From the NCBI GenBank assembly GCA_019058245.1, contig JAHPZJ010000013.1, positions 41,166 through 105,165 on the forward strand: a stretch of DNA of 64,000 nucleotides, in the 5' to 3' direction. The notes beneath the pieces were generated by a model, which did not search any database, was not told the DNA's origin, and was given only the letters and a program-made list of their open reading frames with translations. Source of the DNA: Promethearchaeota archaeon. GTDB taxonomy: Archaea > Asgardarchaeota > Lokiarchaeia > Sigyniarchaeales > SOKP01. The position numbers were made by a program, and so were the translations under genes. This document shows, piece after piece, positions 17,792-30,015 of the stretch (the first letter of the stretch is position 1; every line of letters begins with the position of its first letter).

Positions 17792-18091
17792 ATGGGTTAT
17801 AATGTGATAAATATAAAAACCTCATTCTTTTCTTTATTAGAGGATATTATCGGTAAACAAGAAATTTCATTAACATTTGAAAACGAGTTAACAATTAGAG
17901 ATATTCTAGTGAAATTAAATTCACTAATTGGAAGAAAATTTGAAGAAAATCTATTTAACACCAGAGGAGCGCTAAATAAATACATTATTATTGGAATTAA
18001 TGGAAAGGATATTCGTAAACTCGAAGGATTGGATACCATGATTAAAGATGGTGATGAAATCTCTTTTTTACCTGCTATTGCTGGAGGGTAG
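17792..18091 (+). CDS. MoaD/ThiS/SAMP-like ubiquitin-fold sulfur carrier
   Basis: C-terminus LDTMIKDGDEISFLPAIAGG-stop. Confidence 0.9.
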   Translation: MGYNVINIKTSFFSLLEDIIGKQEISLTFENELTIRDILVKLNSLIGRKFEENLFNTRGALNKYIIIGINGKDIRKLEGLDTMIKDGDEISFLPAIAGG

Positions 18092-21390: not shown

Positions 21391-22320
21391 ATGGAAAAAA
21401 CGTATAATAATATCATAGAAACAATTGGAAATACTCCATTAGTAAAATTGAATAGAATCACGGAAGATATAAAGCCAAATATTTATGCAAAGGTTGAAGC
21501 GTTTAATCCAGGTGCTAGTGTTAAAGACAGAATATGTATGGCAATGATCGAAGTAGCAGAAAACGCTGGAATAATTAATAATCAAACAACAATAGTTGAA
21601 CCCACATCCGGGAATACTGGTATTGGTTTAGCTTTAGTATGTGCGGTAAAAGGATATAGATTGATACTTACAATGCCAGAGAGTATGTCCGTTGAAAGAC
21701 GGAAAATTCTAAAAGCGTATGGGGCTGAGTTAGTTTTAACACCTGCCTCAGGAGGGATGAAAGGTGCGATTAGTAAGGCTGAGGAACTCGCCAAAGATAA
21801 TGATAAGGTATTTATACCTCAACAATTTAAAAATTTAGCAAATCCTGAAATACATCGAACAACAACAGCTGAGGAAATTATCAGAGATCTTGATGGTAAA
21901 ATAGATGTATTTGTCTCAGGGATTGGAACTGGTGGAACAATTACTGGAGTCGGAGAAGTCTTAAGACAAAAAGTTGGAGACCATGTAAAAATTTATGCAG
22001 TAGAGCCTAAAGACTCACCAGTATTATCTGGAGGTAATCCGGGACCTCATAAAATTCAAGGGATTGGAGCGGGATTTATACCGGATGTGCTTAATACTAA
22101 AATATACGACAAAATTATTCAAGTTGAATATGAGAACGCTGTGGAGACGTCAAGAAACTTAGCTAAACTGGAAGGGATATTTGTAGGGGTTTCTGCTGGT
22201 GCCGCAGTATGGGCTACTATCAATGTAGCATCAAAAGATTTTAAAGAAGGGCAAAATATTGTCGTAATTTTACCAGATACAGGGGAAAGATATCTTACAA
22301 CCAATTTATTTGAAGCTTAA
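21391..22320 (+). CDS. cysK: Cysteine synthase A (O-acetylserine sulfhydrylase)
   Basis: IGNTPLV, SVKDRI (PLP Lys), EPTSGNTGIG, GTGGT, PHKIQGIGAGF, PDTGERY. Confidence 0.96.
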   Translation: MEKTYNNIIETIGNTPLVKLNRITEDIKPNIYAKVEAFNPGASVKDRICMAMIEVAENAGIINNQTTIVEPTSGNTGIGLALVCAVKGYRLILTMPESMSVERRKILKAYGAELVLTPASGGMKGAISKAEELAKDNDKVFIPQQFKNLANPEIHRTTTAEEIIRDLDGKIDVFVSGIGTGGTITGVGEVLRQKVGDHVKIYAVEPKDSPVLSGGNPGPHKIQGIGAGFIPDVLNTKIYDKIIQVEYENAVETSRNLAKLEGIFVGVSAGAAVWATINVASKDFKEGQNIVVILPDTGERYLTTNLFEA

Positions 22321-22412: not shown

Positions 22413-23540
22413 GTGATAAATGAGCTGTTTGAGTATATTTTGAATAAAATACCTGAATTAAAGTATTTTAAATATGATAAGATTTTTAAGCTCGAATCGG
22501 GAAAAACATTACCTAAATTTCAATTAGCTTATGAAACCTATGGACAATTAAATTCAACTAAATCAAACGCGATATTAATTTTTCATGCGTTGTCTGGTAG
22601 TTCACATGTTTTCAAAGATAATAGCGAAATTGGTGGTTGGTGGGATGAGATGGTTGGACCAAATAAACCATTTGATACAAATGAATATTTTATAATTTGT
22701 GCTAATATTTTAGGTAGTTGTTATGGTTCTACTGGACCAAATTCCCTCAATCCATTAAATGGAAAAATTTATGGGCTAGATTTTCCTATCATAACAATTC
22801 ATGATATTGTAAAAGCAATAAAAATGTTAATAGACCATTTAGGTGTTCAAAAATTGTTGACAGTAACAGGAAGTAGTATGGGTGGTATGCAAGTTTTGGA
22901 TTGGGTTATTAATTTTTCAGGAATAACCTTATCTGCAATTCCAATGGCTACTGCAGCTTATGCAACTACCTTTAATATTGCATTTAATGAAGTACAACGA
23001 CAAGCAATTTATTCAGATTCTTTTTGGAATAATGGAAATTATTATTCAGGATTTGCACCAAATAAAGGATTAAGACTAGCGAGAGAAATAGGTCATATTA
23101 CTTATTTAAGTGAAGATATTATGAGAGAAAAATTCGGTCGTTCTTTACAAAATAATCCAAAATTACTTTTTCAATTTACTGAAGAATTTGAAGTCGAAAG
23201 TTATTTGCAGTATAAGGGGACAACTTTCACTAAACGTTTTGATGCAAATTCTTATTTGTATATTACAAAAGCAATTGATTATTTCGACATTCGCCAAAAT
23301 GGAAACCTAATTCCGACATTCTCCCACCTGGAGAATAACAAATTCTTGGTAATCTCTTTTTCTTCTGATTGGTTATATCCCACAAGTAAATTGAAGGAAA
23401 TAGTTTTTGCCTTAAAATCAAATTCTTTAGACGTTAGTTTTGTAGAGATTGATGTTAATTATGGGCATGATTCATTTTTAATAGATTGTAAAGATTTACG
23501 AGAAGTAGTTTCAAATTTTTTAACAAATATAGAGGTTTGA
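22413..23540 (+). CDS. metX: Homoserine O-acetyltransferase
   Basis: AYETYG, HALSG, GWWD, GSCYGSTGP, GSSMGG, RFDANSY, SDWLYP, GHDSFL. Confidence 0.92.
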   Translation: MINELFEYILNKIPELKYFKYDKIFKLESGKTLPKFQLAYETYGQLNSTKSNAILIFHALSGSSHVFKDNSEIGGWWDEMVGPNKPFDTNEYFIICANILGSCYGSTGPNSLNPLNGKIYGLDFPIITIHDIVKAIKMLIDHLGVQKLLTVTGSSMGGMQVLDWVINFSGITLSAIPMATAAYATTFNIAFNEVQRQAIYSDSFWNNGNYYSGFAPNKGLRLAREIGHITYLSEDIMREKFGRSLQNNPKLLFQFTEEFEVESYLQYKGTTFTKRFDANSYLYITKAIDYFDIRQNGNLIPTFSHLENNKFLVISFSSDWLYPTSKLKEIVFALKSNSLDVSFVEIDVNYGHDSFLIDCKDLREVVSNFLTNIEV

Positions 23541-23553
23541 ATTAATTTAAATT

Positions 23554-24147
23554 ATGTTAAAAAGAAAAGATCTACAAATAATATGTGAATATGTTACTGA
23601 TTCAAGTAGAGTATTGGATTTAGGTTGCGGAGATGGGCAATTACTTCATGAATTGGTTAAAGAAAAAAAAGTTAAGGGATTAGGAATTGAAATTTCTATT
23701 GATTGTATCAAAAATTGCCTGAAAAAAGGACTCTCCGTGATACAAGAAGATTTAAATGAGGGTTTAAAGGATTTTAAAGATAACTCATTTGATTACATCA
23801 TCTTAAGTCAAACTTTAGAATATATATCATCACCTGATAATCTTATAAAAGAAATGTTAAGAGTCGGAAAACGTTCTTATATTAGTTTTGAAAATTTAGC
23901 TTATTGGAGAAATCGCTTATCTTTTCTCTTTAAAGGCAGAATAAAAAGTTCTAAAAATGGAGGGTCAATTATAAATGGGAAAAAGCAACAACTCTTAACA
24001 GTAAAATCATTCCAAGAACTCTGTAAGAAGAAGGGATTTATAATTTCCTCAAGGATATACCTTCCTAAAAGACAATTCAATCTTACTAAAATTTTTCCAA
24101 ATCTTTTCAGCAGAACAGCAATTTTTATTTTAAAATGCAAATCATAA
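23554..24147 (+). CDS. metW: Methionine biosynthesis protein MetW
   Basis: RVLDLGCGDG, DLNEGL..F.DNSFDYIILSQTL; directly after metX. Confidence 0.9.
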   Translation: MLKRKDLQIICEYVTDSSRVLDLGCGDGQLLHELVKEKKVKGLGIEISIDCIKNCLKKGLSVIQEDLNEGLKDFKDNSFDYIILSQTLEYISSPDNLIKEMLRVGKRSYISFENLAYWRNRLSFLFKGRIKSSKNGGSIINGKKQQLLTVKSFQELCKKKGFIISSRIYLPKRQFNLTKIFPNLFSRTAIFILKCKS

Positions 24148-24169: not shown

Positions 24170-25342
24170 ATGAATGTAAATTGGAATAAAATAAGAAAGG
24201 AACAGTTTCCTGCCCTTGAAAATTCAATATATCTGAAAGCAGCCGGAGGGTCTCCAATGAGTAAAGTAGGATATGACGCTTCTTTAAAGTACCTAACTGA
24301 ATTACATATAGTTGGAGATTTATTTTGGGATCAATATTTTGATGATGCTGAACTTACAAGGCAGTTAATTGCGAACTATATTAATTGTAAACCTCATGAA
24401 ATTGCTTTTCTTATGAATACATCTTCTGGAATGAATGTAATTGCTCATATACTTGAAAGAGGAAGAATATTATATCCCGAGGGTGAATTTCCCACATCAA
24501 TACTGATTTTTAAAAAATTAGGGTTTAAATGTGATAAGTATCCTTTGGAATCTGATAATTCATATCCCTTAGATAAAATTTCTAATTATGTAAAGGAAGA
24601 TACCAAATATATTATCCATAGTCATGTTCAATATCTAACTGGTTTTAAACAAAATTTAGGTGGATTAGGGAATTTTTGTAAAAAAAATAAATATATAAGT
24701 ATAATAAATGCTACCCAATCATTTGGCGCTTTTCCTATTGATACAACCCAAGAGAAGATTGATATTTTAGTGGCATCTGGGTTGAAATGGGCCTGCAGCG
24801 GATATGGGTTGGGAATTCTATATCTCAATGATAGACTTATTCCTAAGGAAGGATTATCTTTTTCAAGTTGGCTAAGTGTCAAAGATTCATTTTCAATGGA
24901 TAATGATAATCTTAATTTCATTAATCAAACAAAAGCCATGGACGGCTTAGGAGGTACTCCAAATTTTGCTTCAATTATTGCTTTAAAAGCAAACCTTCTA
25001 TTAATAAAGGAGATTGGAAATGGTAATATTAGAGAAGGCATTAAACGAATACGAAAAAGAATAATTAATCTCACTCAGAGTTTCATAGAGCAACTTAAGG
25101 AGACTAATTTAAAAATTATCACTCCTTTAGATATAGAATATCGCTCAGGTATAATTACAATTGAGAGTGAAAATGCTAAGTCAATATTTTCGGACCTTTC
25201 AGCAAAAAATATCCAAATTTCACTTAGGAACTATCCTAAAACAAAAAATAAGACTCTTCTAAGGTTTGCTTTCAACTATTATAATAATGAAGATGATATT
25301 GAAGAAACAATTTCAATCTTAAAATCAAACCAAAAAAGATAA
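24170..25342 (+). CDS. Class V PLP-dependent enzyme (C-S lyase/desulfurase-like)
   Basis: IRKEQFP, NTSSGMN, EFPT, NATQSFG, ASGLKW, GTPNF, LRFAFNYYN. Confidence 0.75.
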   Translation: MNVNWNKIRKEQFPALENSIYLKAAGGSPMSKVGYDASLKYLTELHIVGDLFWDQYFDDAELTRQLIANYINCKPHEIAFLMNTSSGMNVIAHILERGRILYPEGEFPTSILIFKKLGFKCDKYPLESDNSYPLDKISNYVKEDTKYIIHSHVQYLTGFKQNLGGLGNFCKKNKYISIINATQSFGAFPIDTTQEKIDILVASGLKWACSGYGLGILYLNDRLIPKEGLSFSSWLSVKDSFSMDNDNLNFINQTKAMDGLGGTPNFASIIALKANLLLIKEIGNGNIREGIKRIRKRIINLTQSFIEQLKETNLKIITPLDIEYRSGIITIESENAKSIFSDLSAKNIQISLRNYPKTKNKTLLRFAFNYYNNEDDIEETISILKSNQKR

Positions 25343-25349
25343 AAAAGAA

Positions 25350-26993
25350 ATGCAATTACCAGAATTAAAATACCTTAAAATTATCGGGGGTTTTCATGGG
25401 ATTTCTGCAGTATTTCCTAAACTACAAGATGTCATTGATTATGAAGAAGGAAACATATATGTTAATCAAGCTTATCCCCGCTTTGTTAGTCATCCAACCG
25501 TAAAAATTCTTGAATTAAAATATAAAAAAAAAACTAAGTCGCTTGAATCGATTAGTTGCCATAGTTTTGAGAGTGCAATATTTTTAGTATTTGACTATTT
25601 CTATGAAAAAGGCTGTAAAATCTATATTGATGAGGAATTAACTAAGATTCTTTCTATTTATTTCAAAGAAAAATTTCCTGATATTATTGTTGAAGTTGAG
25701 CCAAATGAAGCGGAAGTACTTTTTATCAGTAAATTAGAAGATTTCAACGAAAACAAAATAGTTATAGGGATATTTAACGAGAAAGACCTTTCAGAAATAA
25801 TAGATTCAATAAAATTCAACATTATAATTATTAATGAAAAAACATTTGATATTGGAATTATATTAATTTTTAATTCTAGATACGTAATACTAGAAACCCT
25901 GAGAAGACATTGTGGTTTCAATGTAAGTTCTCGTAAATTTTTAAAAGTTTACATCAATAAGCAAAAAGAAGCGAAACTTGAATATAAACTTAAATCTACC
26001 ATTTCCAAACTCGAACACTTGAAATCAAATCATTGTTATTTGTATTCTTCAGGGATGGCTGCTGTATTTTCGTCCATTTTTTCACTAATGTCAGTAGAAC
26101 GACCAAAAATTATTATATTAGGATCTTTATACGTTGATACTTTCCGAATTTTAGAAAAATGGCCAAAAAAATTTGGACTTAAAAAACCTATATTTATCAG
26201 GGCTGATATTGATAATAATTTGCAAAAATGTATTGATGATGAAGTAACTGCTGTTATTATCGAGTTTCCTAGTAATCCCTTAATTCAGCTTGTAGATATT
26301 AGTAAAATAGTAAGAATTGCACACTCTCATGGATCAAAGGTGTTAGTGGATAATACAATTGCTACTCCTTATAATTTCAATCCACTTGATTATGATGTGG
26401 ACATCGTTGTTCATAGTACGACCAAATTTCTAAGTGGAAAAAATAATCATATTGGAGGTGCTATTTTAACTAATAATGAAAAGATTGGTGAAAACATTAA
26501 AGGACTTAATAATTTGCTTCAATTAAAGATGCACATCAATGATATAAAAACACTTAGCCGAAATATAAAAACTTTTGAAGAAAGAATGGCAAAAATAAAT
26601 AGAAATGCTGAAATCGTTGCCAATTTCCTAAATAACCATGAATTTATTGAAAAAGTGTACTATCCTAGTCTTAAAAATAGTCCGAATCGTAAACTTAAGG
26701 AAAAATATCTGAGAGCTGGTGGAGGATTATTAAGTTTTGTATTAAAAGATTCTTCAGCAGAAAATGCAATGAAATTTTATGATAATCTTCTACCTCCGAT
26801 TTTAAAAGGACCAAGTTTAGGATCCGAGAAAACCTTATTATCCCCATACGTTATGATGGCACATTATAATGACGCAAAACAAGAATTAGAACGCTTAGGT
26901 TTTGATTTTTATTTAATGAGACTTTCTGTTGGAATAGAAAAAATTAACTTAATTCTAAAAAGCCTTGAAAATGGATTAAGTCAATTAAAATAA
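25350..26993 (+). CDS. Cystathionine gamma-synthase, long fungal Str2-like type
   Basis: N-terminal YEEG..YPRFVSHP; SSGMAA, EFPSNP, VDNT, HSTTKFLSG, KGPSLG..PY..AHY, RLSVGIE. Confidence 0.8.
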   Translation: MQLPELKYLKIIGGFHGISAVFPKLQDVIDYEEGNIYVNQAYPRFVSHPTVKILELKYKKKTKSLESISCHSFESAIFLVFDYFYEKGCKIYIDEELTKILSIYFKEKFPDIIVEVEPNEAEVLFISKLEDFNENKIVIGIFNEKDLSEIIDSIKFNIIIINEKTFDIGIILIFNSRYVILETLRRHCGFNVSSRKFLKVYINKQKEAKLEYKLKSTISKLEHLKSNHCYLYSSGMAAVFSSIFSLMSVERPKIIILGSLYVDTFRILEKWPKKFGLKKPIFIRADIDNNLQKCIDDEVTAVIIEFPSNPLIQLVDISKIVRIAHSHGSKVLVDNTIATPYNFNPLDYDVDIVVHSTTKFLSGKNNHIGGAILTNNEKIGENIKGLNNLLQLKMHINDIKTLSRNIKTFEERMAKINRNAEIVANFLNNHEFIEKVYYPSLKNSPNRKLKEKYLRAGGGLLSFVLKDSSAENAMKFYDNLLPPILKGPSLGSEKTLLSPYVMMAHYNDAKQELERLGFDFYLMRLSVGIEKINLILKSLENGLSQLK

Positions 26994-27020
26994 TAAAAAC
27001 ACAAATAAAAGCTCAATAAA

Positions 27021-27710
27021 TTGAGAGAAATTGCTGAACAAATAGAAGGAAGACTTTTAGAAAAAGGAATTATTGTAAAAGTAGAATTTAGAGATGATGA
27101 AAACCTCAAGAGTACATATTTAATTTCAACTCCTAGTGCCTTTAAAAAGAAGTATCTCTTTATAATTGTTCCAGGATACCCTGAAATCGCGGGGGTTTGG
27201 TCATTTACTTTATTAAGTCAAGATAAACTAACTGAGTCAAGCATGGAATCATATTTTATAGAATTTGATAGAGAAAATTGGGGATTGGTTGCTTTAAATC
27301 CTCATTATATTAATGGTGATTTAGAAGGTATTAATTATTTTAACCAATTAGCCTATATAACTCAAAATCTAAAACCTAAGACCAAGTTTGGATTTATTGG
27401 GTTCTCTATGGGAGGTAGAATTATCTATGATTATCTTAATAAAAATAAAAAAATATTGGAGAATTTAATTGGTATTGTTCAAATAGATCCTGTAATTCAA
27501 AGTCTAAATTATGATAGTAACTTTATGCGTTCTTTAGTAGATAGAACAATCTTGTTCGCTTCGAGTACTGATAAATATCAATTTGGATTGAAGGCTTCAA
27601 TTCTACTTAATATCCCAAATATTCCTATAGAGGGAATACATGGCATTCTTCCTAGCAAATGTCTAGGGAAAATAATTGATTACTTTAAAAATCAGGTTAA
27701 AAAAGAGTAA
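27021..27710 (+). CDS. Alpha/beta hydrolase, Arb2/FAM172-like
   Basis: LFIIVPG..AGVW..WGLVALNP, nucleophile elbow GFSMGG, QIDPV, C-terminal GIHG. Confidence 0.65.
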   Translation: MREIAEQIEGRLLEKGIIVKVEFRDDENLKSTYLISTPSAFKKKYLFIIVPGYPEIAGVWSFTLLSQDKLTESSMESYFIEFDRENWGLVALNPHYINGDLEGINYFNQLAYITQNLKPKTKFGFIGFSMGGRIIYDYLNKNKKILENLIGIVQIDPVIQSLNYDSNFMRSLVDRTILFASSTDKYQFGLKASILLNIPNIPIEGIHGILPSKCLGKIIDYFKNQVKKE

Positions 27711-27903
27711 GGATTAAGTTCAGTATTAATCCTCAATATTGATTAAATCCAAGAGAAATTAACGGTCATTTCAGTTAAGAGATCGACTAAATCTACATAT
27801 TCAAGCTGAATTATCTTCCAATGAAGAAAAGTAGGTCTTTTCTTTTAGGGGAAGAATGATAATTAGAATAAAAATTGTGATTTTTCTAAAAACTGAAGGA
27901 TTT

Positions 27904-28920
27904 TCATAAAATATGCTGTTCTATTTTTTCTTTCTTTATTTTATCAACATCGATGAAATTTTTTAATGCATGTATCTTTGTACCATAAACAATTCTTCCA
28001 TTAATATCATTGTTATCTGAATATCTTAAAGTTAGTTCCGCGGCAAACTTCATTACTTCATTATCTCTTTTTCCTTGAATAATAGTAATTGGACCTGTCA
28101 CATTTTCAGCTTGCATTATTAAATCATTAGTATATTTCAATTGAAGTAATAACTTATTTTCTAACTCATTTCTTCCTACTATAATTTTTGATTGATTATA
28201 CCTAAAATGGCGTCCATATTTTAGAATATTCACATCCTTCATGTTAAGATTCTCATGATATTTAATACAATCTTTCATTCGATTCGAAAATCCCTTATCA
28301 GTTAATAAACATCCACCACATGCATAATATGAATTTAATAATCCATATTTCTGAGCAATTTCGAGTTGAATCTTTCTGCTTCGTCCATTGATACCAAATA
28401 ATTTAGATCTATCAATATATCCTTGTTTTTCAAGAATAGTAGGTTCCAATAATAAAGCAGATAAGGGTCTTAGTAATTTTCCTTTTAGCCCTGCTTCACG
28501 TTCAATGATCTTTAAAGCTCGTTTATTTTGAGATTTAGGTCTTTGATTTAAAACTTCTCCTGTAAAAATAAAATCAGCCTTGATTTTTTCTGCAAATTTC
28601 TTGGCTTTTTTTAAAATGTATATTCTGCAATCGATACATGGATTTAAATTTCTCCCATAACCGAATATTGGACTACGGATTATTTTTAGGTAATCTTCTT
28701 TCTTATATTGGTAATATGTTGTAATTCCCAATTTTTCATAATATAAATTTAAACCACATTCTGAATTTTTTAAGGCTTTATCACAATTACAAAATGGCGA
28801 TTTAAAATTGAGTCCCACAATTTCAATATCTTGTAATTTTAGCATTAAAGTAGCAATTAAACTGTCCAATCCTCCCGAAATTAATCCAAGTCCTAAGAGG
28901 CTATTGTTAGTATATCTCAT
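27904..28920 (-). CDS. ThiI/MnmA-like tRNA sulfurtransferase (PP-loop)
   Basis: ISGGLDS PP-loop, NPCIDCR, TGEVLNQRPKSQ, LLRPLSA, GGCLLTD, GRHFR..VGRNELEN. Confidence 0.85.
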   Translation of the reverse strand: MRYTNNSLLGLGLISGGLDSLIATLMLKLQDIEIVGLNFKSPFCNCDKALKNSECGLNLYYEKLGITTYYQYKKEDYLKIIRSPIFGYGRNLNPCIDCRIYILKKAKKFAEKIKADFIFTGEVLNQRPKSQNKRALKIIEREAGLKGKLLRPLSALLLEPTILEKQGYIDRSKLFGINGRSRKIQLEIAQKYGLLNSYYACGGCLLTDKGFSNRMKDCIKYHENLNMKDVNILKYGRHFRYNQSKIIVGRNELENKLLLQLKYTNDLIMQAENVTGPITIIQGKRDNEVMKFAAELTLRYSDNNDINGRIVYGTKIHALKNFIDVDKIKKEKIEQHIL

Positions 28921-28939: not shown

Positions 28940-29209
28940 TTAAAGCTTTTTTAGTTTCAAAAACCATATGCCTTCTTCTGGGTCAATTTCCTTTTTTTCC
29001 ATTAACTCTGCGAGGTTTTGACGGTTACAATTTTCAGGTATATTTTTTGCCGCAGGAGGAAAATCTAAAATAACTTCTAAAATATCACCTTGATCCAATT
29101 CTTCAAGAGATAATTTAGTATAGACGAATGTCATAGGGCATACTTTTCCTTTAATATCCAGGTTTTTTAACATAATTCTCAAATCTTTTTTTGAACTTTT
29201 TACTAACAT
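28940..29209 (-). CDS. tusA: TusA/SirA family sulfur carrier
   Basis: LDIKGKVCPM..GDILEVILDFPPAAKNIP. Confidence 0.88.
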   Translation of the reverse strand: MLVKSSKKDLRIMLKNLDIKGKVCPMTFVYTKLSLEELDQGDILEVILDFPPAAKNIPENCNRQNLAELMEKKEIDPEEGIWFLKLKKL

Positions 29210-30015
29210 ATATCTTCTATCCTATAGTTATAGGTTCCAACTAAATCGACTGCATTTTCTCCACATGCAATACAATTATCATCTCTATGAATATCTATAA
29301 AATTAAATGTATTTCGTAAGAGATCTACATATAATATCTTATTTGTGATTAAATCACCTACATTCAGAATGTATTTGATTGCTTCATTTGCTTCTATACA
29401 ACCTAGGATCCCTGGAATTAATCCAATGACTCCTGCTTCTGAACATGACATCCCCGTGCCCATATCAGAGACATCGCCAAAAATGCATCTATAACAAGCA
29501 GTTTTTTTCTCTGGAACCGTTGTCATAATCTGTCCATGGAATCTTAATACTCCTGCTATTGTAAATGGGATCTGTAAATAGATACATGTATCATTAACTA
29601 ACATCTTGGTAGGAAAGTTGTCAGAACCTTCTATCACAAAATCTGATCCTTTAATAAATTTTTTAGCATTTAGAGGGGTAATCTTATCGGAAATAACCTC
29701 AATGCTGCAATCTGGATTTAAAAGATTCAGCTTTTCAATAGCACTCTCTGTTTTTTTTCGATTAATATCTTTTGTGAAATGGAGAATCTGTCTATGCAAA
29801 TTTGAAGGTTCGACTATATCATAATCAATCACTTTTAAATGACCAATTCCTGCGGCAACTAAATAATATGCGACAGGTGATCCAAGTGCTCCTAATCCAA
29901 TTAAAGAAACTTTTGAATTCAATAATTTTTTTTGTCCAATTCCTCCAATTTCCTTAAGGACAATTTGACGTGAATATCTATTGATCTGTTCTTCTGTTAA
30001 ATTCATCTTCTTCAA
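29203..30015 (-). CDS. moeB: MoeB/ThiF/UbaA E1-like adenylyltransferase
   Basis: RYSRQI, IGLGALG, SNLHRQ, DNFPT, CYRC, SCSEAGV, CIAC. True start may be ATG 30006. Confidence 0.9.
   Translation of the reverse strand: MKKMNLTEEQINRYSRQIVLKEIGGIGQKKLLNSKVSLIGLGALGSPVAYYLVAAGIGHLKVIDYDIVEPSNLHRQILHFTKDINRKKTESAIEKLNLLNPDCSIEVISDKITPLNAKKFIKGSDFVIEGSDNFPTKMLVNDTCIYLQIPFTIAGVLRFHGQIMTTVPEKKTACYRCIFGDVSDMGTGMSCSEAGVIGLIPGILGCIEANEAIKYILNVGDLITNKILYVDLLRNTFNFIDIHRDDNCIACGENAVDLVGTYNYRIEDIC

Follow-up and report, generated by a model that had tools for sequence, protein, structure and literature searches.

The 64,000-nucleotide stretch of Promethearchaeota archaeon DNA analysed here (henceforth the window; contig JAHPZJ010000013.1 of assembly GCA_019058245.1) contains a gene for a 229-residue protein, the hydrolase of what follows, which we conclude with high confidence to be a genuine full-length prokaryotic homologue of the Arb2/FAM172 domain. 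In the literature Arb2 figures as a eukaryotic module for protein interactions that is catalytically dead (PMC11878206, PMC5036196). What appears to be new is a stand-alone and operon-embedded prokaryotic form, bearing predicted catalytic triad residues, of a domain otherwise known from eukaryotic chromatin, where it is inactive. A literature search found no paper on prokaryotic Arb2 homologues, on Arb2 in connection with Asgard archaea or on hydrolase activity of FAM172A/ARB2A. The link does already exist in databases, since the Pfam Arb2 model tags many prokaryotic members.

Sequence relationship to Arb2 and FAM172A

The reading frame of the hydrolase opens past a TAA at 27006-27008, the upstream gene having ended at 26993 and the gap between the two genes being 27 bp. 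Its translation contains, in order, LLEKGIIVKV, KSTYLISTPSAFKKKYLFIIVPGYPEIAGVWSFTLL, WGLVALNP, GFSMGG and QIDPV; the open reading frame and every motif quoted in the original prediction, which had been made from the DNA letters and their translations, are thus present in the stated order. A word-seeded search of 5.8 billion proteins returned 38 homologues with E-values of 1e-44 to 1e-86, the nearest being 63% identical (E 1e-86), and an alignment of 22 full-length family members contains 36 invariant columns. The open reading frame is therefore real and not a product of chance.

Arb2 (PF22749) is the top Pfam family for the window protein, with an E-value of 5.1e-5 and 23.2 bits over residues 25-95 only; the corresponding E-value for Abhydrolase_1 is 0.004. 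Among the 22 aligned family members, Arb2 matches 21 (best E 8e-10) and Abhydrolase_1 matches 14, and most homologues of the hydrolase carry a precomputed PF22749 match. A Pfam Arb2 search of the whole source genome found this locus alone, as a weak match. An exhaustive hmmsearch of 1.84 billion representatives with a profile of the prokaryotic family yielded 123 proteins. About 40 of them, with E-values up to 1e-10, are close family members or fragments; those of the remote tail are longer. Pfam Arb2 is present on 72 of the 74 remote matches scanned (E 3e-13 to 1e-3), with a best Arb2 E-value of 5e-86. Named examples include a FAM172A-like protein (Priapulus), a cotranscriptional regulator ARB2A-like protein (Sycon), an Arb2 domain-containing protein (Paralvinella) and a foraminiferal protein. 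Generic alpha/beta hydrolases are nearly absent from this remote set, though vastly commoner in the library.

Twenty-one FAM172-type proteins, drawn from the set in which Pfam Arb2 was so prevalent, were aligned and compared with the 22-member prokaryotic alignment by hhalign. The two match with 99.5% probability and an E-value of 4.9e-23 over 228 columns, approximately the whole protein. The blocks given for human FAM172A in the original prediction match the consensus of these 21 proteins (LLVLIxGxGxVRAGQWSR, GVxVLNPN, AHSxGG and AFTDSVH). Searches of PDB sequences with the single protein or with the family profile gave only weak generic hydrolase or spurious matches (profile E at least 0.08), and the solved Arb2 domains are thus out of reach for sequence searches by themselves.

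Structural comparisons

The AlphaFold2 model of the hydrolase has a predicted local distance difference test (pLDDT) score of 88 and a predicted template modelling (pTM) score of 0.90, and lacks a large cap domain. In a VIA search, exhaustive over 48,161 PDB representative chains, the first rank is held by the Arb2 domain of Clr3 (PDB code 5ikk, residues 436-680; Z 18.6, root mean square deviation 2.8, 202 aligned residues) and the second by that of Hda1 (5j8j; Z 17.4, root mean square deviation 3.2, 208 aligned). Foldseek likewise places 5j8j first, with 5ikk and 6z6f within the top ten. In the ESM Atlas the model reaches a template modelling (TM) score of 0.92 with its family's own cluster, which is 72% Bacteria, and 0.82-0.84 with the FAM172 CG10038, oomycete kinase-Arb2, Syntaxin18_N-Arb2 and ATG29_N-Arb2 clusters; generic hydrolases score 0.68-0.72.

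The alternative to be weighed here is that the protein is a generic alpha/beta hydrolase lacking any specific relationship to Arb2 or FAM172. Three observations weigh against our assignment and towards that alternative: the Arb2 score of the window protein lies below the Pfam gathering threshold of 26.8 bits; the best non-Arb2 chain in the VIA search attains a Z-score of 17.0, a small margin, with Z 15-17 being reached by many generic hydrolases; and the Foldseek E-values of Arb2 domains and generic hydrolases are almost tied. The yield of weak generic hydrolases alone from the PDB sequence search points the same way. Nevertheless, almost every scanned remote match from the 1.84 billion proteins is Arb2, the hhalign match extends over the full length with AGxWS and LNP motifs common to both groups, Arb2 domains take the first two structural ranks, and the Atlas TM scores compare as 0.83 with 0.70. 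A merely generic hydrolase is accordingly extremely improbable. Five independent lines, from Pfam, the profile search, hhalign, PDB structures and the ESM Atlas, agree on the homology first proposed from the sequence. Of the tests suggested with that proposal, the profile comparison put Arb2 first among Pfam families and matched FAM172-type proteins over the full length, and the Foldseek run had the Hda1 domain as its first match; in neither the profile nor the structure searches did generic hydrolases come out best with Arb2 affinity lacking.

Known relatives of three kinds may be compared. The Arb2 domains of Clr3 (5ikk) and Hda1 (5j8j, 6z6f) are the best structural matches, over residues 1-227 and including the N-terminal helix and hairpin. 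Unlike the archaeal protein, which stands alone, they are fused C-terminally to a deacetylase domain, and they are reported to lack the catalytic triad whose residues the archaeal protein keeps; an inserted arm in them serves dimerisation and histone binding (PMC5036196, PMC11878206). Cap-less serine hydrolases and thioesterases (DcsB, 7d78; ABHD10, 6ny9; CIB-like, 3bdi) share the core fold and a Ser-Asp-His-type site, with Z-scores of 16-17, but have no specific sequence relationship and lack the AGxWS signature. Among Arb2 proteins the prokaryotic hydrolase is closest to the FAM172A/ARB2A type (PF22749), which has the AGxWS, LNP(N/H), GxSxGG, (I/T)D and H motifs in identical order, and whose CG10038 cluster gives the Atlas TM score of 0.84. 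Differences from this type lie in sequence identity (about 18%), in length (about 290-340 residues or more, against 229), and in biology, which is that of chromatin, AGO2 or splicing where the prokaryotic gene lies in a sulfur amino-acid operon. As the hhalign comparison shows, the prokaryotic protein is without the eukaryotic insertions, including the loop bearing a nuclear localisation signal described for FAM172A (PMC10205598).

The predicted active site

The hhalign comparison pairs GFSMGG of the hydrolase with AHSxGG of FAM172, IDP with TDS and GIHG with GxxxHE. At the position of Ser129, Ser is found in 36 of 38 prokaryotic rows and 20 of 25 FAM172-type rows; the Asp156 position holds 37 Asp and one Glu in the prokaryotic set and Asp in 24 of the FAM172-type rows; and His207 is matched by His in all 38 and in 21, respectively. 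The sampled FAM172-type proteins therefore mostly retain the three residues. The Ser of GFSMGG is invariant among the 22 aligned members, bearing out the intact nucleophile of the original prediction. Trp60 of AGxWS is kept in all 63 rows of both kinds and, judged from these alignments, AGxWS together with LNP(H/N) is the signature of the family.

In the AlphaFold2 model, Ser129 follows strand 122-128 and precedes helix 130-141, a classic nucleophile elbow, and His207 comes after the last strand. Ser129, Asp156 and His207 are predicted to form the catalytic triad, and the protein is, to judge from the conserved residues, probably an active hydrolase. Two considerations tell against this. Asp156 lies after the sixth strand of the model, the canonical position being after the seventh, and Arb2 domains have been described in print as inactive, those of Hda1 and Clr3 being alpha/beta-hydrolase-like but without a triad (PMC5036196; PMC11878206). 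As the published domains are inactive and prokaryotic members keep the triad residues, the prokaryotic family would be the catalytically equipped version.

The protein might instead be a non-catalytic protein-binding module acting as scaffold or regulator of the pyridoxal phosphate (PLP) enzyme encoded next to it, after the fashion of the Hda1 and Clr3 domains, which are described as inactive and as serving for dimerisation and the binding of histones (PMC5036196, PMC11878206); the conserved pairing of the hydrolase and PLP genes, described below, would suit such a role. However, Ser, Asp and His are near-perfectly kept across distant prokaryotic phyla, and a pure scaffold would need none of them. 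Because of this conservation a non-catalytic partner is disfavoured, and we consider it very improbable.

Distribution and phylogeny

Named records of family members include an uncultured archaeon (62% identity), metagenome-assembled genomes (MAGs) of Promethearchaeia and Promethearchaeota, and a Heimdallarchaeaceae MAG. On the bacterial side there are MAGs of Planctomycetota (including Sedimentisphaerales), Kiritimatiellia and SAR324. The family was found in only 5 of 301 Asgard genomes searched; a further 22 genomes from the genus of the source genome, a good number of which are 95-100% complete, gave no member. The source genome is that of a Lokiarchaeota-type Asgard archaeon, and one family-level relative of it (G040) carries a protein that scores identically to the one from Promethearchaeia isolate ABR01. 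The prokaryotic Arb2-like family is thus small and patchily distributed, and in Asgard archaea it is rare and easily lost.

A tree was computed with IQ-TREE (LG+C20 with posterior mean site frequencies) from 63 rows and 239 columns. The eukaryotic rows, together with one unlabelled fragment, are split from all prokaryotic rows with support of 100/100 and on a long branch. The first prokaryotic lineages met from the eukaryotic side belong to two Asgard f7 groups, and the Heimdallarchaeaceae protein falls in one of these, but the nodes joining eukaryotes to them have support of 77/70 and 71/44 and come with a long-branch warning. In approximately unbiased (AU) tests, neither a grouping of eukaryotes with the SAR324-type clade (p 0.37) nor one with the Loki/PVC clade (p 0.35) is rejected. 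Within the prokaryotic half, the closest neighbour of the window's own clade (99/98) is a mixed group in which a second Lokiarchaeial clade stands with Planctomycetota and Kiritimatiellia; transfer between domains has therefore occurred.

It had been suggested that this may be a eukaryotic signature protein (ESP). In support, Asgard genomes do hold a homologue of a eukaryote-typical domain, both in Promethearchaeia-type relatives and in the Heimdallarchaeaceae member. The near-absence from other prokaryotes that the label also implies is contradicted by the Planctomycetota, Kiritimatiellia and SAR324 members, and the label is further weakened by the small share of Asgard genomes concerned and by AU tests that allow more than one attachment of the eukaryotic clade. 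The phylogeny with bacterial homologues that had been proposed as a check accordingly gave a divided answer, with eukaryotes beside Asgard f7 groups at weak support and bacterial attachment not rejected. More than one donor of the eukaryotic Arb2 clade is compatible with the tree. A strict ESP history, with eukaryotic Arb2/FAM172A descending vertically from an Asgard copy of Heimdall type and the bacterial copies arising by secondary transfer, would fit the attachment beside the two f7 lineages, and also the breadth of Arb2 in eukaryotes (animals, fungi, oomycetes and a foraminifer). Given the backbone support and long-branch warning, the AU results, and the spread of the family over at least three bacterial phyla as against 5 of 301 Asgard genomes, we regard that history as somewhat unlikely.

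Genomic context

The hydrolase lies at the 3' end of a Met-type operon, as originally predicted (Table 1). The genes for MetX, MetW, the class V aminotransferase, the long PLP enzyme and the hydrolase run in one direction, each 7-27 bp from the next, and the hydrolase is probably co-transcribed with the long PLP enzyme, as far as gene spacing can tell. From its pairing with MetW, we infer the MetX-like protein to be of the homoserine O-acyltransferase type. Further upstream are also genes for Rrf2 (minus strand), IscU, IscS and a hexapeptide transferase. A scan for sigma-70 promoters and intrinsic terminators at the 3' end, using bacterial models, found nothing over background, and an Rfam scan of the window gave no match.

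Table 1. Coordinates of the hydrolase, its predicted catalytic residues and neighbouring features, numbered from the first letter of the window.
Feature	Position	Strand	Basis or remark
ThiS/Urm1-type ubiquitin-fold sulfur carrier, C-terminus AIAGG	17792..18091	+	Pfam ThiS E 6.6e-12, Urm1; island head
PALP-family enzyme (CysK/CysM type)	21391..22320	+	Pfam PALP E 1.4e-72
MetX-like alpha/beta hydrolase	22413..23540	+	Pfam Abhydrolase_1 over 375 aa; immediately precedes MetW
MetW	23554..24147	+	Pfam MetW E 5.5e-54; TIGR02081 above cut-off
Class V aminotransferase / cysteine-desulfurase-like PLP enzyme	24170..25342	+	Pfam Aminotran_5, KYNU_C; NCBIfam cysteine desulfurase family
Long-form Cys/Met-metabolism PLP enzyme, 547 aa, ~210-aa N-terminal extension	25350..26993	+	Pfam Cys_Met_Meta_PP, residues 213-543
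Segment of 882 bp with hydrolase gene and 191 bp of 3' sequence (37 bp in L041)	27020..27901	.	blastn of flanks
Arb2/FAM172-like single-domain alpha/beta serine hydrolase (predicted)	27021..27710	+	229 aa, TTG start
Ser129 codon, predicted nucleophile in GFSMGG	27405..27407	+	Strand-Ser-helix elbow; invariant in 22-member alignment
Asp156 codon (IDP), predicted catalytic acid	27486..27488	+	Conserved; aligns with FAM172 TDS Asp
His207 codon (GIHG), predicted catalytic base	27639..27641	+	Conserved; aligns with FAM172 HE His
ThiI-like PP-loop protein with NFACT-R_2 fusion	27904..28920	-	Pfam ThiI, tRNA_Me_trans, NFACT-R_2; convergent with hydrolase
TusA sulfurtransferase	28940..29209	-	Pfam TusA
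ThiF/MoeB-type E1-like adenylyltransferase	29203..30015	-	Pfam ThiF E 3.4e-72

With its sulfur carrier, ThiF, TusA, ThiI-like protein, MetX and PLP enzymes, the island looks like an Asgard protein-thiocarboxylate route to homocysteine and/or cysteine. NFACT-R_2, fused to the ThiI-like PP-loop protein at the end of the island, is an RNA-binding domain. The N-terminal extension of the long PLP enzyme is conserved; a word-seeded search with it finds Promethearchaeota proteins only and it has no Pfam match, results on which a suspected 'fungal-type' origin of the extension was rejected. Its consensus (window 25350-25990; …GYPRF…HP…ISCHSYESAIFLV…) resembles the N-terminal part of this PLP fold itself, copied in degenerate form. 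The long PLP enzyme of the window has 89%-identical Promethearchaeota relatives; in four genomes of the same genus (G008, G049, G132 and G150; 94-99% complete) there is no match to it at an E-value of 1e-20. The sulfur island itself seems to be accessory.

Six independent loci of the window's clade carry hydrolases that are 54-63% identical; in all of them the long PLP gene immediately precedes that of the hydrolase and is its sole conserved neighbour, the others varying. Identities over the same loci are similar for the two proteins (hydrolase 55-62%, PLP enzyme 58-63%), suggesting joint inheritance of both genes. A functional link between hydrolase and PLP enzyme in this clade is moderately likely. 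A prediction of the complex of the two proteins scored 0.00, which gives no verdict and counts neither way. A pairing of MetW methyltransferase and esterase in the manner of BioC/BioH was considered and dropped, since the partner that the hydrolase keeps is the PLP enzyme, and this pair persists where MetW is separated or absent. In three relatives, genes for Arf-family small GTPases, typical of Asgard archaea, are found a few kb from the pair (L008:3442-3966, L014:7868-8392 and the P0020 contig).

Outside this clade the context changes. Neither the Met operon nor the PLP pairing is seen in members of 46% identity or less, nor in Heimdall-type and bacterial members, a point against the explanation favoured below; the Met-operon link that had been proposed consequently stands for one Lokiarchaeial subclade and fails for the other archaeal and the bacterial members. 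One member at 46% identity or less adjoins a molybdopterin oxidoreductase. A recurring neighbour was looked for in the Heimdall-type, Kiritimatiellia, Planctomycetota MohnsGC08 and ABR01 members, and none was found. In Planctomycetota (L013:244-2839 and two further contigs) the hydrolase repeatedly follows Pyr_redox_2 and C_GCAxxG_C_C genes on the same strand, a context, with its pyridine-nucleotide disulfide oxidoreductase and C_GCAxxG_C_C protein, that hints at thiol or thioester chemistry. A SAR324 MAG (L007:6501-9866) has a co-directional array of phosphopantetheinyl transferase, an unknown 252-residue protein, the hydrolase (28% identity) and a class V aminotransferase, a setting that likewise has something of sulfur or thioester chemistry about it.

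Natural absence of the gene in close relatives

A close relative of the source genome (L041, GCA_048937415.1) has a PLP enzyme 89% identical to that of the window and the whole island in the same order, without the hydrolase. Synteny between the two spans NMT1_2 and ThiS through ThiF, ADH and TIR genes. By blastn, identity between the flanks is 90.7% up to position 27019, two bases before the TTG start codon, and 93.2% from 27902, while tblastn of the hydrolase in this genome found no trace of it. The inverted repeat GGATTAA … TTAATCC at 27711-27735, directly 3' of the hydrolase stop codon, falls within the 882-bp segment absent from the relative. The long PLP enzyme also occurs without a hydrolase match in three family-level genomes (G183, G168 and G019). 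In two sister genomes a ThiS/Urm1 gene stands right after the long PLP gene, on the same strand in one (L024:3269-3553) and convergent in the other (L027:1417-1701), and so in or beside the slot held by the hydrolase in the window; the carrier of the window is 50% identical to such a carrier in a sister genome.

Since the hydrolase and PLP enzyme co-diverge, the difference is explained more parsimoniously by a recent loss in L041 than by a recent gain in the window. Whether by loss or gain, the island functions without the hydrolase, a fact that weighs against any essential part for it in the pathway. Because so close a relative has the same island without the gene, the role of the hydrolase is probably auxiliary.

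Possible functions

The explanation that best accommodates these observations, and that we hold to be fairly likely as a whole, is that of an Arb2-type hydrolase inherited with the PLP enzyme and auxiliary in homocysteine synthesis. The protein would be a compact, cap-less alpha/beta serine hydrolase using the predicted Ser129-Asp156-His207 triad to hydrolyse a compound that arises in homocysteine synthesis as by-product or intermediate and is an ester, a thioester or an acyl-amide. Its substrate would be tied to the reaction of the long PLP enzyme, and its part might be one of salvage, release or proofreading. Candidate substrates include a carrier-protein-homocysteine adduct, homocysteine thiolactone, and acetylated homoserine or homocysteine; any one of these, named singly, is unlikely to be the right one.

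Among the specific proposals, a small-molecule thioesterase or esterase in repair or salvage, for instance a homocysteine-thiolactone hydrolase or a deacetylase of O-/N-acetyl-homoserine or -homocysteine, best fits the dispensability of the gene in close relatives. It would also fit the strict pairing with a PLP enzyme of homocysteine-forming type and the presence of thioesterases (DcsB, ABHD10 and a putative thioesterase) near the top of the structural matches. Homocysteine thiolactone is efficiently hydrolysed by one alpha/beta hydrolase, BPHL. On the other hand, the thioesterases match the structure no better than feruloyl esterases or lipases do, and we put this proposal forward tentatively, as rather unlikely in itself.

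Another candidate function is release of homocysteine from an adduct with the ThiS/Urm1-type carrier, the serine hydrolase substituting for the JAMM proteins Mec or HcyD. The island does encode a GG-ending carrier, ThiF, TusA, a ThiI-like protein, desulfurases, MetX and the PLP enzyme, and sister genomes place the carrier gene directly after the long PLP gene. No Prok-JAB gene is present on the source contig. Thiocarboxylate pathways to homocysteine with a dedicated hydrolase are given as established in Table 2 of PMC13759103 and by Krishnamoorthy and Begley 2011, as cited in PMC5764234. The cap-less model might also suit a macromolecular substrate. The systems concerned (CysO-CysM-Mec, HcyS-MetY-HcyD and MetO-MetM-Mec) resemble the island in clustering with a ThiS-type carrier, an E1-like protein and a Cys/Met PLP enzyme (PMC13759103). 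However, Mec and HcyD are JAMM metalloproteases, unrelated in fold and mechanism to an alpha/beta hydrolase, so that the analogy would be purely functional, and nothing in the distribution data favours it in particular. Each of the five genomes checked has Prok-JAB genes, always outside the Met cluster and whether or not the hydrolase is present, so that JAMM genes and the hydrolase show no complementary pattern. Release from the carrier is further opposed by three other hydrolase-bearing loci with no carrier gene within 6-8 kb, and by the close relative's island, which works without the hydrolase. We judge this function distinctly unlikely.

Taken to its furthest extent, the idea would have prokaryotic Arb2-like enzymes cleaving C-terminal Gly-Gly acyl adducts of ThiS/Urm1-type carriers, with eukaryotic Arb2/FAM172A descending from them via an Asgard ancestor of Heimdall type and FAM172A still active. 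This is quite improbable; if true, homocysteine would be released or rescued here by a ubiquitin-like-protein C-terminal hydrolase, and the search for a FAM172A substrate could follow the same lines.

Implications for the Arb2 family

FAM172A/ARB2A is mutated in some patients with CHARGE syndrome and is without assigned biochemistry (PMC10205598). The conserved Ser-Asp-His set would mean that the Arb2 family has, or at least had, enzymatic members, with most sampled FAM172-type proteins retaining these residues. For eukaryogenesis the implication is a modest one: the family is one that eukaryotes have in common with Asgard archaea and with a few bacterial phyla. It does not make a clean Asgard-to-eukaryote marker, because its distribution is patchy, its tree allows more than one eukaryotic attachment and bacterial members exist. 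The small bacterial and archaeal proteins may, nonetheless, offer a tractable route to the ancestral reaction of the family.

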